Positions 2 to 3,673 of a stretch of DNA of 64,000 bases are shown here, one piece after another. The stretch lies in the NCBI RefSeq assembly GCF_016026235.1, contig NZ_CP065613.1. The stretch is one strand, 5' to 3'. Made by a program: the position numbers and the translations under genes. The notes below the pieces were generated by a model. The model was not told where the DNA came from, did not search any database, and saw only the letters and a program-made list of their open reading frames with translations. Every line of letters starts with the position of its first letter. Position 1 is the first letter of the stretch. The stretch is from Escherichia coli (GTDB taxonomy: Bacteria; Pseudomonadota; Gammaproteobacteria; Enterobacterales; Enterobacteriaceae).

Positions 2-3000
2 CCGGTAACATTTGTGGCGGACAAAACCTCGGCTCAGGTTGTCCTGCAGATGTCAAAAGATGAGATCACAGGTAATGGCGTCGATAACGCAACGCTAACT
101 GCAACGGTTAAAGATCAGTTCGACAATGAGGTGAATAATCTTCCGGTAACATTCAGCTCAGCCTCTTCAGGACTCACCCTGACCCCGGGAGTAAGTAATA
201 CCAATGAGTCTGGCATCGCGCAGGCCACTCTCGCAGGCGTTGCCTTTGGTGAGCAGACGGTCACTGCATCACTGGCTAATAATGGTGCCAGCGACAACAA
301 AACTGTGCATTTTATTGGCGACACAGCGGCGGCAAAAATTATCGAGTTGACGCCTGTCCCAGACAGCATAATCGCCGGTACCCCGCAGAACAGCTCCGGC
401 AGCGTCATCACCGCCACAGTCGTTGATAATAATGGCTTTCCGGTGAAAGGTGTGACTGTGAACTTCACCAGCAACGCAGCGACAGCCGAAATGACGAACG
501 GCGGTCAAGCCGTGACGAACGAACAGGGTAAGGCTACCGTCACTTATACCAATACCCGCTCCTCGATAGAATCAGGAGCGAGACCGGATACCGTTGAGGC
601 CAGTCTGGAAAATGGTAGCTCCACGCTTAGCACATCAATTAATGTCAACGCTGATGCGTCTACGGCACATCTCACCTTGCTACAGGCACTTTTTGATACA
701 GTCTCCGCAGGCGACACTACCAATCTGTATATTGAGGTGAAGGATAATTACGGCAACGGAGTACCCCAGCAGGAGGTAACCCTCAGAGTATCACCAAGTG
801 AAGGCGTGACCCTCAGTAATAACGGCATAAATACTACCAACCACGACGGCTATTTATACGCAAGCTTTACCGCTACAAAAGCCGGGGTTTATCAAGTGAC
901 GGCAACCCTCGAAAATGGCGATTCGATGCAACAAACAGTGACCTATGTGCCGAACGTCGCGAATGCCGAAATCACGCTGGCAGCCTCGAAGGATCCGGTG
1001 ATTGCCGACAATAACGATCTCACGACACTAACAGCAACAGTCGCTGATACAGAGGGCAATGCGATAGCCAACACTGAAGTAACATTTACTCTGCCGGAAG
1101 ATGTGAAGGCGAACTTCACGCTGAGCGATGGCGGTAAAGCGATTACTGATGCTGAAGGCAAAGCGAAAGTCACGCTGAAAGGTACAAAAGCAGGCGCTCA
1201 TACTGTTACAGCATCGATAACTGGCGGTAAGAGTGAGCAGTTGGTGGTGAACTTTACTGCGGATACGCTCACTGCGCAGGTTAATCTTAACGTTACCGAG
1301 GACAATTTTATCGCTAATAACGTCGGGATGACCAGGCTGCAGGCAACAGTGACTGATGGAAACGGCAACCCGTTAGCCAATGAGGCGGTGACATTCACGC
1401 TACCGGCAGATGTGAGCGCAAGCTTTACTCTCGGACAAGGCGGTTCCGCCATTACTGACATCAACGGCAAGGCTGAAGTTACACTGAGCGGTACAAAATC
1501 CGGCACCTACCCCGTGACAGTTAGCGTGAACAATTATGGTGTCAGTGATACGAAACAGGTGACTTTGATTGCCGATGCTGGTACCGCAAAACTAGCCTCC
1601 TTAACCTCTGTATACTCATTCGTCGTCAGCACGACCGAGGGCACGACCATGACTGCAAGCGTCACTGACGCTAACGGCAACCCGGTAGAAGGTATAAAAG
1701 TTAATTTCCGCGGAACTTCCGTCACGCTAAGCAGCACCAGCGTTGAAACGGATGATCGGGGTTTCGCTGAAATTCTTGTGACAAGCACCGAGGTCGGACT
1801 GAAAACAGTTTCAGCCTCTCTGGCAGATAAACCTACTGAAGTCATCTCGCGATTACTGAATGCAAAAGCAGATATTAATTCTGCAACGATTACCAGTCTG
1901 GAGATACCTGAAGGTCAGGTCATGGTCGCACAAGACGTAGCAGTTAAAGCTCACGTCAACGACCAGTTTGGCAATCCGATTCTTAATGAATCTGTAACAT
2001 TCAGTGCAGAACCACCAGAGCACATGACCATCAGCCAAAATATTGTCTCTACTGATACGCATGGTATAGCCGAGGTCACTATGACGCCCGAAAGAAACGG
2101 TTCGTATATGGTGAAAGCATCCCTGGCGAATGGATCCTCTTATGAGAAGGATCTGGTGGTAATCGATCAAAAACTGACACTCTCGGCGTCCAGCCCGCTT
2201 ATCGGTGTCAATTCCCCAACAGGTGCAACTCTGACGGCAACGCTAACTTCTGCAAATGGCACTCCAGTGGAGGGTCAGGTCATCAACTTTAGCGTAACGC
2301 CAGAAGGTGCGACGTTAAGTGGCGGAAAAGTGAGAACCAACTCTTCAGGTCAGGCTCCAGTCGTTCTGACCAGCAATAAAGTCGGTACATATACGGTGAC
2401 TGCATCGTTCCATAACGGCGTAACAATACAGACACAGACAATCGTGAAAGTCACTGGCAACTCAAGCACCGCCCATGTTGCTAGCTTTATCGCTGATCCA
2501 TCGACTATAGCCGCCACCAACAGTGATTTAAGTACCTTAAAGGCAACGGTTGAGGATGGCAGTGGTAACCTGATCGAAGGTCTCACTGTGTACTTCGCCT
2601 TAAAAAGCGGCTCTGCCACATTAACGTCATTAACAGCGGTGACAGATCAAAACGGAATCGCGACAACAAGCGTGAGAGGAGCGATAACGGGGAGCGTCAC
2701 GGTAAGCGCAGTCACGACCGCTGGTGGAATGCAAACAGTAGATATAACGCTGGTGGCAGGCCCGGCAGACGCCTCGCAGTCCGTCCTTAAGAACAATCGG
2801 TCATCATTGAAAGGAGACTTTACCGATAGTGCTGAGCTACATCTTGTTCTGCACGATATATCAGGCAATCCGATCAAAGTTTCTGAAGGGCTGGAATTTG
2901 TGCAGTCAGGTACCAACGCGCCCTATGTGCAAGTTAGTGCAATTGACTACAGTAAAAATTTCTCAGGCGAGTACAAAGCCACTGTTACAGGCGGCGGAGA

Positions 3001-3673
3001 GGGTATCGCAACGCTGATCCCTGTATTGAATGGTGTTCATCAAGCGGGTCTGAGTACCACAATACAATTCACTCGCGCAGAAGACAAAATAATGAGCGGT
3101 ACAGTGTTAGTCAATGGTGCTAACCTACCGACAACTACATTCCCTTCGCAGGGGTTCACTGGGGCGTATTATCAGTTGAATAATGACAACTTTGCCCCAG
3201 GAAAAACGGCGGCTGATTATGAGTTTTCAAGCTCTGCCTCCTGGGTTGATGTTGATGCTACCGGTAAAGTGACATTTAAAAATGTCGGCAGCAAATGGGA
3301 GAGGATTACGGCGACGCCAAAAACAGGCGGCCCTAGCTATATATACGAAATCCGAGTGAAGAGTTGGTGGGTGAACGCCGGCGATGCTTTCATGATATAC
3401 AGCCTTGCTGAAAATTTTTGCAGTAGCAATGGCTACACACTTCCCCTTGGAGACCATTTAAACCATAGTCGTTCCCGAGGCATCGGGTCACTGTACAGTG
3501 AATGGGGAGATATGGGGCATTACACGACTGAAGCTGGTTTTCATTCAAATATGTATTGGTCATCGAGTCCCGCAAACTCAAACGAACAATACGTAGTTTC
3601 CCTGGCAACAGGTGATCAAAGCGTATTTGAAAAGCTTGGGTTTGCTTATGCGACATGTTATAAAAACCTCTGA
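2..3673 (+). CDS. yeeJ: Inverse-autotransporter (intimin/invasin-like) adhesin YeeJ, C-terminal portion; 5' end lies outside the window
   Basis: Frame is open from the window edge to the stop at 3671-3673. Product is a long array of ~100-aa bacterial Ig-like repeats (recurring ...LTATV.D..GN.......VTF... blocks) ending in a distinct C-terminal domain. Recognised from memory as YeeJ. Confidence 0.85.
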   Translation, partial: PVTFVADKTSAQVVLQMSKDEITGNGVDNATLTATVKDQFDNEVNNLPVTFSSASSGLTLTPGVSNTNESGIAQATLAGVAFGEQTVTASLANNGASDNKTVHFIGDTAAAKIIELTPVPDSIIAGTPQNSSGSVITATVVDNNGFPVKGVTVNFTSNAATAEMTNGGQAVTNEQGKATVTYTNTRSSIESGARPDTVEASLENGSSTLSTSINVNADASTAHLTLLQALFDTVSAGDTTNLYIEVKDNYGNGVPQQEVTLRVSPSEGVTLSNNGINTTNHDGYLYASFTATKAGVYQVTATLENGDSMQQTVTYVPNVANAEITLAASKDPVIADNNDLTTLTATVADTEGNAIANTEVTFTLPEDVKANFTLSDGGKAITDAEGKAKVTLKGTKAGAHTVTASITGGKSEQLVVNFTADTLTAQVNLNVTEDNFIANNVGMTRLQATVTDGNGNPLANEAVTFTLPADVSASFTLGQGGSAITDINGKAEVTLSGTKSGTYPVTVSVNNYGVSDTKQVTLIADAGTAKLASLTSVYSFVVSTTEGTTMTASVTDANGNPVEGIKVNFRGTSVTLSSTSVETDDRGFAEILVTSTEVGLKTVSASLADKPTEVISRLLNAKADINSATITSLEIPEGQVMVAQDVAVKAHVNDQFGNPILNESVTFSAEPPEHMTISQNIVSTDTHGIAEVTMTPERNGSYMVKASLANGSSYEKDLVVIDQKLTLSASSPLIGVNSPTGATLTATLTSANGTPVEGQVINFSVTPEGATLSGGKVRTNSSGQAPVVLTSNKVGTYTVTASFHNGVTIQTQTIVKVTGNSSTAHVASFIADPSTIAATNSDLSTLKATVEDGSGNLIEGLTVYFALKSGSATLTSLTAVTDQNGIATTSVRGAITGSVTVSAVTTAGGMQTVDITLVAGPADASQSVLKNNRSSLKGDFTDSAELHLVLHDISGNPIKVSEGLEFVQSGTNAPYVQVSAIDYSKNFSGEYKATVTGGGEGIATLIPVLNGVHQAGLSTTIQFTRAEDKIMSGTVLVNGANLPTTTFPSQGFTGAYYQLNNDNFAPGKTAADYEFSSSASWVDVDATGKVTFKNVGSKWERITATPKTGGPSYIYEIRVKSWWVNAGDAFMIYSLAENFCSSNGYTLPLGDHLNHSRSRGIGSLYSEWGDMGHYTTEAGFHSNMYWSSSPANSNEQYVVSLATGDQSVFEKLGFAYATCYKNL

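Follow-up and report, generated by a model that had tools for sequence, protein, structure and literature searches.

Diverged Ig-like repeats in the distal part of Escherichia coli yeeJ and length variation just upstream of them

yeeJ at the left edge of the window

The analysed stretch of Escherichia coli DNA, hereafter the window, comprises 64,000 nt of contig NZ_CP065613.1 (assembly GCF_016026235.1). Its left edge (positions 2-3673, + strand) contains the 3′ 3.67 kb of yeeJ, that is, 1,223 codons without an internal stop and a stop codon at 3671-3673, while the gene start lies beyond the edge. Alignment with K-12 yeeJ showed 95.8% DNA identity over 3,700 nt, the matching records are annotated yeeJ, and the closest allele, that of XJ34, is 99.5% identical. 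The region was matched in 5,079 of 5,426 complete E. coli genomes. Annotated relatives share the neighbourhood (tRNA-Asn/mtfA, yeeJ, a GT9 gene, shiA, amn and yeeN), and their genes downstream of yeeJ are collinear with those of the window over 19 kb. With high identity to the K-12 gene and a conserved position, the frame behaves as a yeeJ orthologue, and the gene name proposed in the initial annotation was right. The features identified in the region are as follows.

1..156, + strand: last 156 nt of a copy-number-variable duplicated zone (long-allele self-BLASTN)
2..3673, + strand: 3′ part of yeeJ, C-terminal 1,223 codons plus stop (open frame, identity, synteny)
2-31, + strand: end of the preceding Ig unit (B′), last 10 residues; lies in 1..156, the tail of the duplicated zone
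32..319, + strand: Big_1 Ig-like repeat 1, aa 11-106 (own-repeat HMM; leave-one-out E=1.3e-22)
332..652, + strand: Big_1 repeat 2, aa 111-217, with a 6-residue insertion (leave-one-out E=8e-17)
665..952, + strand: Big_1 repeat 3, aa 222-317 (leave-one-out E=1e-17)
965..1261, + strand: Big_1 repeat 4, aa 322-420 (best Pfam Big_1 stretch, aa 324-419; leave-one-out E=6.9e-28)
1274..1573, + strand: Big_1 repeat 5, aa 425-524 (own-repeat HMM, leave-one-out)
1361..1683, + strand: end-points of a one-repeat (312-nt) deletion (junction alignment against L003)
1586..1864, + strand: Big_1 repeat 6, aa 529-621 (leave-one-out E=1.6e-19)
1883..2167, + strand: Big_1 repeat 7, aa 628-722 (leave-one-out E=4.4e-21)
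2168..2455, + strand: Big_1 repeat 8, aa 723-818 (leave-one-out E=4.9e-21)
2471..2758, + strand: Big_1 repeat 9, aa 824-919 (leave-one-out E=3.4e-17)
2777..3073, + strand: divergent tenth Ig-like domain, aa 926-1024 (leave-one-out E=8.3e-5; aligns with invasin D3)
3098..3361, + strand: invasin-D4-like Ig domain, aa ~1033-1120, not Big_1 (Pfam Invasin_D4; 1CWV profile)
3362..3670, + strand: C-type-lectin-like cap, aa ~1121-1223, equivalent to invasin D5 / intimin D3 (Pfam, NCBIfam, 1CWV profile)
3693..3720, + strand: intrinsic-terminator-like hairpin, 12-bp stem followed by a T run, 20 nt past the yeeJ stop (terminator scan)

The terminator scan found two such sites against 0.3 expected from shuffles. 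Many copies of yeeJ are damaged: full-length yeeJ was covered to at least 80% in only 2,419 of the 5,198 matching genomes, and published surveys put complete yeeJ in only ~35-40% of strains (PMC6714894, PMC5595812). Close relatives carry IS insertions and internal stops; an IS3 element and a stop codon inside the frame break yeeJ in AREA_497, the closest relative over 25 kb. These observations would fit a non-functional remnant in the source strain, broken upstream of the window, whose array has just not yet decayed. We consider this unlikely, since all the visible codons are open, the terminator is intact and the XJ34 allele belongs to an intact gene of 2,660 aa.

Ig-like domains and a lectin-like cap

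The product encoded in the window consists of nine robust Big_1 domains ~102 aa apart, followed by a divergent tenth Ig domain, an invasin-D4-like Ig domain and a C-type-lectin-like cap. Pfam Big_1 matched the frame in 9 stretches (E=3.6e-141, 460 bits) and Pfam Invasin_D3 matched it with 250 bits. BLOSUM autocorrelation of the protein was strongest at a lag of 103 aa (z=5.2, or 6.2 when limited to aa 1-1000), compared with a cut-off of 3.7-3.8 set by the 95th percentile of maximum z among shuffled sequences. Because the last-round E-values of an iterative HMM are circular, we relied on HMMs of the protein's own repeats in a leave-one-out design; these recovered nine units with E~1e-17 to 1e-28 and the tenth with 8e-5. 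The units start at aa 11, 111, 222, 322, 425, 529, 628, 723, 824 and 926, with a spacing of 95-111 aa. Repetition at the protein level is far beyond chance. Comparison of the protein against itself by BLASTP returned the identity match only. Amino acid identity between repeats is 24-52%, repeats 4 and 5 being the closest pair (52% aa, 58% DNA identity). The tenth domain is 14-20% identical to the other units, and a profile of the tail aligned with invasin 1CWV from chain residue 210. The repeats stop near nt 3073, or near nt 3361 with the D4-like domain counted in, and nt 3362-3670 encode the cap and not a repeat. Both Pfam and the leave-one-out HMMs recovered a tandem Big_1 / invasin-D3-type Ig passenger as found in the type Ve family. 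The array of ~100-residue Ig-like repeats with conserved spacing described in the initial annotation is real. Its count of more than ten stands if every Ig fold is included (nine canonical, one divergent and one D4-like, for a total of 11, to which the 10 terminal residues of a twelfth can be added), but only nine to ten are recognisable as sequence repeats.

The identity of the tail was approached with several models. Pfam Invasin_D4 scored 23.2 bits, under its 27-bit cut-off, and Pfam Intimin_C gave 17.1 bits on the cap, also under cut-off, while the NCBIfam intimin model (E=8.5e-30) aligned up to position 908 of its 939. Single-sequence PDB searches with the whole fragment and with the tail were weak, yielding an intimin match at E=1e-4 and a chance match, and invasin was reached only with a profile of four sequences. 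This tail profile aligned with 1CWV at E=2e-14 over residues 210-464, which span D3-D5. From these matches, the passenger is predicted to end in a terminal Ig plus C-type-lectin-like superdomain; PMC5595812 reports a C-type-lectin cap for K-12 YeeJ. An AlphaFold2 model of the tail, computed from the four-sequence alignment, was discarded (mean pLDDT 38.9). An alternative tip, ~55% identical in amino acids, is present in 267 genomes (~5%), and we did not find it described in the portions of PMC5595812 available to us.

Regarding the proximal domains, the IAT_beta barrel (PF11924) was detected at aa 144-419 (E~1e-112) in full-length XJ34, K-12 and SHP24; in the gene studied here it falls off the window, as do the promoter and the signal peptide. 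In a subset of the type Ve family, a periplasmic LysM precedes the barrel. The Pfam scan of full-length alleles found no LysM family at E<=1e-5, at a position that is likewise off the window; in PMC5595812, the LysM of YeeJ is reported by Prosite PS51782, with peptidoglycan binding shown.

Stability of the array and origin of length variation

At the DNA level, Tandem Repeats Finder reported no array in the region, and autocorrelation against a codon-shuffled control was not significant (maximum z 3.0, threshold 3.8). BLASTN self-comparison with a word size of 7 gave a sole off-diagonal match, of 162 nt with 69% identity at offset 309. Thus, of the self-similarity that was to be checked at the DNA or protein level, the protein periodicity (lag 103 aa) was found and the DNA periodicity was not. 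The repeats share 34-58% DNA identity and their longest exact direct repeat is 12 nt, which is too little for ordinary homologous recombination. Units alike enough for that process, with tens of exact bases in common, were found only in the upstream zone of long alleles and not inside the window. Among sampled rows of ~2,900 genomes, all intact alleles were collinear with positions 1-3700 or 1-3288, without any repeat-sized indel. The repeats of the window would be ancient duplications that have since diverged, and divergence to this level, in protein and in DNA, indicates that this part of the array is genetically stable.

The initial annotation held instead that the visible array is itself recombination-prone, its unit number changing between strains and tuning adhesin length. 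In-frame, in-register changes of whole repeats do happen in yeeJ, and one of them, the 312-nt (one-domain) deletion at ~1361-1683, falls in this region and was found, with its junction as one piece, in ~2,118 genomes. The direct repeat AACGGCAACCC(G), found at 1361-1372 and again at 1673-1684 within the conserved ATVTD-NGNP motif, contains its crossover point, where an 11-nt microhomology was used (the exact repeat at the site is 12 nt). However, it is the sole repeat-unit change that we found in the region; every copy inspected is a decayed pseudogene remnant, frameshifted and HPI-adjacent, and the deletion looks like one ancestral event in one lineage. Taken together with the low DNA identity of the units, their short exact matches and the collinearity of every intact allele sampled, these observations leave a recombination-prone visible array very improbable.

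Copy number and adhesin length do differ between strains when the whole gene is considered, as had been claimed. Pfam Big_1 domains number 16 in intact alleles of 2,660 aa, 14 in those of 2,465 aa and 13 in those of 2,358 aa; counting repeats across alleles showed these gene-wide differences and none in the part of the intact sampled alleles that corresponds to the window. The long-type segment occurs in ~1,276 genomes and the short type in ~1,636. All the variation seen among intact genes falls in a younger, duplicated zone at long-allele nt 3036-4466, in the form of 906-nt and 609-nt indels; the window begins at long-allele nt 4311. When the long allele was compared with itself by BLASTN, an 824-nt duplicate emerged (86% identity, offset 609) with a 78-nt exact run, and amino acid identity in the zone reaches 89% for A/A′ and 97% for B/B′. 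The SHP24 gene is the long type minus 609 nt. At informative sites it resembles copy 1 throughout on the left and copy 2 throughout on the right, with a mixture at nt 3128-3561, a pattern that fits a crossover with some conversion. That the single copy of SHP24 represents the ancestral state before duplication was considered and, given this site pattern, is judged the less likely reading. The 906-nt indel maps to long-allele nt 3209-4105 and shows an 11-nt overlap, GTGAAAGATCC. The direction of the indels, taken here as shortening of a long ancestor, is read from the chimeric repeat at the junction rather than from phylogeny.

These data suggest that length differences arise immediately upstream of the window, in the younger duplication of two domains (609 nt), where unequal homologous crossover would remove two domains to give the 2,465-aa allele, and where an in-register deletion at the 11-nt microhomology probably took out three domains to give the 2,358-aa K-12 allele. 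The 906-bp, three-Big-domain length polymorphism was published in 2017 (Martinez-Gil et al., Sci Rep 7:11326, PMC5595812); in the available portions of that paper we found no description of the 11-nt microhomology junction or of the third class of intact alleles, which is rare and, at 2,465 aa, lacks 609 nt.

Proposed role of YeeJ and comparison with known systems

All in all, we are highly confident that the region codes for the distal part of the passenger of YeeJ, an inverse autotransporter (type Ve) adhesin encoded on the E. coli chromosome, with a stable array in the window and variation upstream of it. By analogy with the intimin/invasin family and with published work on YeeJ, the N-terminal LysM and the beta-barrel, both off the window, would anchor the protein in the outer membrane, and the passenger would pass through the barrel to the outside. 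Linked in a chain, the Ig domains may then serve as a long stalk that holds the lectin-like tip off the cell, and YeeJ, when expressed, would promote biofilm formation. To our knowledge no receptor is known for YeeJ, neither Tir nor integrin. The 2017 paper (PMC5595812) observed no adhesion by YeeJ to cultured cells or to proteins of the extracellular matrix, and detected no difference in function between the long variant and the short one; YeeJ function and the two variants are also treated in PMC6714894.

YeeJ, its Big_1 array, its lectin-like cap and the 906-bp (three-domain) polymorphism have been known since 2017 and are in this sense ordinary. What the analysis corrects is the step from Ig repeats in a protein to DNA that is prone to recombination: the array in view has diverged and is stable, and the younger duplication just outside the window is where the hotspot actually lies. 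The microhomology junctions, the rare 2,465-aa class and the alternative tip are minor findings of possible interest to adhesin specialists and typing schemes. A broader reading, which we regard as speculative and quite unlikely, is that yeeJ is more polymorphic than the published two-variant picture, with at least three stalk lengths (16/14/13 Big_1) generated by two mechanisms and at least two to three tip types ~55% identical; this could reflect diversifying selection on reach and receptor specificity, and the source strain could carry an undescribed combination.

The closest known counterparts are YeeJ of K-12 MG1655 and of UMN026 (PMC5595812), with which the gene studied here agrees in identity, locus, Big_1 array and C-type-lectin cap. 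The gene studied here is nearest to the long (UMN026/XJ34-like) lineage, XJ34 being of the long form; the diagnostic 906-bp segment lies off the window. Yersinia pseudotuberculosis invasin (1CWV) and E. coli intimin share the type Ve plan, a tandem Ig rod ending in an Ig plus C-type-lectin-like superdomain, but they carry 4 and 3-4 Ig-like domains, respectively, compared with 13-16 Big_1 domains in YeeJ. The score of 103 against the intimin equivalog, far under its 1,400-bit cut-off, indicates that YeeJ is a paralogue and not intimin. The tandem Ig stalk is also common to near-identical-repeat inverse autotransporters, of which the Yersinia ruckeri invasin-like protein is an example (cited in PMC6714894), and to other copy-number-variable repeat adhesins. 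The repeats in the window are far too diverged to behave like those of such adhesins, whereas the upstream A-B/A′-B′ zone of long yeeJ, from which one two-domain unit is missing in SHP24, does behave like them.

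Identification of the gene and of its repeat array

A single open frame of 1,223 codons enters the window from its left edge and runs on the plus strand from nt 2 to nt 3673, with its stop codon at 3671-3673; it covers the 3′ portion of a gene whose 5′ 4.3 kb lie off-window. Of the 5,426 complete E. coli genomes searched with megablast, 5,079 contain this segment; identity is 99.5% to strain XJ34 and 95.8% to K-12-type records bearing the annotation 'inverse autotransporter adhesin YeeJ'. Because the genes also stood in their customary order (tRNA-Asn, yeeJ, a convergent GT9 glycosyltransferase gene, shiA, amn, yeeN) and 19 kb of the window were collinear with one annotated relative, the initial annotation was right to call the gene yeeJ. 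The following element lies 20 nt 3′ of the stop codon:

3693-3720, hairpin with a 12-bp stem, then a T run

Pfam analysis matched Big_1 (PF02369) to the frame with E=3.6e-141, in nine stretches that were each significant and that the Invasin_D3 model overlapped. The nine units were recovered with phmmer from one seed repeat (aa 322-420), and iterating the repeat search added a tenth at aa 926-1024. Since last-round iterative E-values are circular, leave-one-out tests were used, in which each unit was compared with a model of the others; these gave E=1e-17 to 1e-28 for nine units and E=8e-5 for the tenth.

Starts of the repeat units (aa of the window frame)
11, 111, 222, 322, 425, 529, 628, 723, 824, 926

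The array of Ig-like repeats was thus confirmed, as was its conserved spacing of ~100 residues: units were 95-111 aa apart, and BLOSUM62 autocorrelation peaked at a lag of 103 aa (z=5.2 overall and 6.2 within aa 1-1000, against a 95th percentile of ~3.7 for the highest z of shuffled sequences). The same autocorrelation detected no periodicity in the last ~200 aa. There, a four-sequence profile of aa 921-1223 matched residues 210-464 of Yersinia invasin 1CWV (E=2e-14), which we take to be domains D3-D5, and the alignment to the NCBIfam intimin model extended to model position 908 of 939. The Pfam matches for the lectin-like and D4-like domains fell below their cut-offs, and the AlphaFold model of the tail was unusable. 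On these sequence comparisons, the frame opens with the final 10 residues of an Ig unit and continues with nine Big_1 domains and a divergent Ig domain, followed by a predicted D4-like Ig domain and a predicted C-type-lectin-like cap. A count of more than ten Ig-like repeats therefore holds if all Ig folds are included (11 complete), but sequence similarity picks out just 9-10 of them as repeats; likewise, the array is present, but nt ~3362-3670 of the 2-3673 assigned to it are not repeat.

Window 115-2916 (-) also contains a series of antisense ORFs (76-119 aa) about one repeat apart. They are unlikely to be real genes and most likely reflect the repeat codon pattern, in which each unit brings one antisense stop. 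Among others, the series comprises:

1198-1506 (-), antisense ORF
1534-1845 (-), antisense ORF
1853-2170 (-), antisense ORF
2350-2619 (-), antisense ORF
2647-2916 (-), antisense ORF

Divergence and stability of the window repeats

Periodic self-similarity was evident at the protein level but not at the DNA level: TRF found no relevant tandem array in window yeeJ, and DNA autocorrelation tested against codon shuffles was not significant. BLASTN (word size 7) yielded one off-diagonal self-match, of 162 nt with 69% identity at an offset of 309, between repeats 4 and 5. Codon-aligned DNA identity between units was 34-58% (mean 42%) and protein identity 14-52% (mean 28%); adjacent pairs shared 17-35%, with the exception of repeats 4 and 5 (52%). 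In tandem domain proteins, neighbours generally stay dissimilar, a rule that the low identity of neighbouring YeeJ domains appears to fit. Short DNA matches sat on the conserved ATV-D-NGNP motif, and the longest exact direct repeat within 3.7 kb was 12 nt. Because RecA-dependent recombination in E. coli requires exact homology over ~25 bases or more, the window array is a poor RecA substrate.

Where sampled rows covered the window segment in full, its length was exactly 3,700 nt throughout, and divergent alleles were off by just 6-7 nt. The sole repeat-unit change seen inside this region was a junction that skips one Ig unit (312 nt, window ~1372-1683) in about 2,118 genomes; its crossover falls in AACGGCAACCC, at 1361 and 1673, a stretch belonging to the longest exact direct repeat. 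The three loci inspected were all frameshifted remnants, truncated N- and C-terminally, adjoining the yersiniabactin island (ybt/fyuA). Most likely, this deletion goes back to a single old event in a gene under decay and does not reflect ongoing variation.

The C-terminal tip occurs in at least two allelic forms (window 3289-3673; L007, a locus from another E. coli genome, 9110-9507). The CAU16175/SHP24-type tip, found in 267 of 5,426 genomes, has ~55% aa identity over the last ~200 residues, and its megablast DNA similarity ends at window 3288; a further form (row H178 of the genome search) has 80.7% DNA identity. The HPI-adjacent pseudogene remnant stems from the CAU16175/SHP24-type tip allele and has lost ~450 nt, tip included.

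Length variation upstream of the window

Repeat counting with Pfam against other yeeJ alleles gave 16, 14 and 13 Big_1 domains for proteins of 2,660, 2,465 and 2,358 aa, each with an IAT_beta barrel. Copy number and adhesin length thus vary between strains for yeeJ as a whole, but the window part contributed no repeat-sized length change among the intact alleles sampled. The 906-nt difference between XJ34 (7,983 nt, 2,660 aa) and K-12 (7,077 nt, 2,358 aa) maps to long-allele nt 3209-4105, and the window starts at long-allele nt 4311. The junction preserves both reading frame and repeat register: the first 28 residues of unit A continue into unit B′ at an 11-nt overlap (GTGAAAGATCC) coding the conserved V-K-D motif. 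Because the junction unit of the short allele combines two units of the long allele cleanly, we infer that a long-type ancestor underwent a deletion.

In the long allele, an 824-nt segment recurs with 86% identity at an offset of two Ig units (609 nt); the copies share a 78-nt exact run, and the duplicated units are 89% (A/A′) and 97% (B/B′) identical in protein. Of this zone, just the final 156 nt reach into the window.

Copies of the 824-nt repeat (long-allele nt)
3036-3857
3645-4466

A third intact class, SHP24 yeeJ (locus L004, 2992-10389; 7,398 nt, 2,465 aa), matches a long-type allele from which one 609-nt unit of two domains is missing, with the crossover within nt 3128-3561. This loss has the pattern expected from unequal homologous crossover; change by recombination, as initially proposed, is plausible upstream but unlikely for the window repeats. 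By BLAST coverage classes and sampled rows, the long-specific probe was covered at ≥80% in 1,276 genomes, a count that takes in the intermediate SHP24-type, and short-type yeeJ occurred in about 1,636; the intermediate class was rare (1 of 30 sampled rows). Apart from copies that were truncated or disrupted by an IS, a 60-row whole-gene sample contained just the 7,983-8,007 and 7,077 length classes. The accessible portion of the 2017 paper (PMC5595812) makes no mention that we found of the 2,465-aa class. The initial interpretation is right for the yeeJ gene and wrong for the visible array.

Gene decay, neighbours and published background

In the closest 25-kb relative, AREA_497, yeeJ (locus L009, 905-8673) is interrupted by an IS3 element. 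Insertion sequences (IS3, IS66, IS4-like; AREA_497 and rows H96, H108, H117 and H119 of the whole-gene search) and internal stops recur in yeeJ of different strains, in agreement with surveys that report a complete gene in just ~35-40% of strains (PMC5595812, PMC6714894). Separately, AREA_497 lacks a 1,517-nt segment (window 19359-20875) that carries a 378-aa IS110-family transposase gene (Transposase_20 + DEDD_Tnp_IS110) and is probably a strain-specific IS insertion. The gene is flanked by:

19361-19374 and 20858-20871, 14-nt perfect inverted repeat

The convergent GT9 gene (window 3938-4987 (-)) is an intact 350-aa, heptosyltransferase-like frame in a low-GC stretch (0.36-0.43 vs about 0.50 in yeeJ), and its similarity to LPS heptosyltransferase I is weak (35 bits). 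Its counterpart in the K-12-type record HST04 has an internal stop and carries a pseudogene annotation. Because the GT9 gene is intact beside decayed yeeJ remnants, it is probably functionally independent of yeeJ.

In a working model drawn from the family and published work, a LysM domain and beta-barrel would anchor YeeJ in the outer membrane, and the passenger would be exported, its Ig chain forming a stalk that presents the lectin-like tip. Martinez-Gil et al. 2017 (PMC5595812) showed that YeeJ is surface-exposed, binds peptidoglycan through its LysM domain, promotes biofilm and is repressed by PNPase, and that it did not bind the tested extracellular-matrix proteins or cell lines. The same study describes two variants that differ by a 906-bp fragment, equal to three Big domains, with no functional difference. 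Everything essential on this array has already been published. Goh et al. class YeeJ as one of seven families of inverse autotransporters in E. coli: intimin, FdeC, YeeJ and IatA-D (Goh et al. 2019, PMC6714894).
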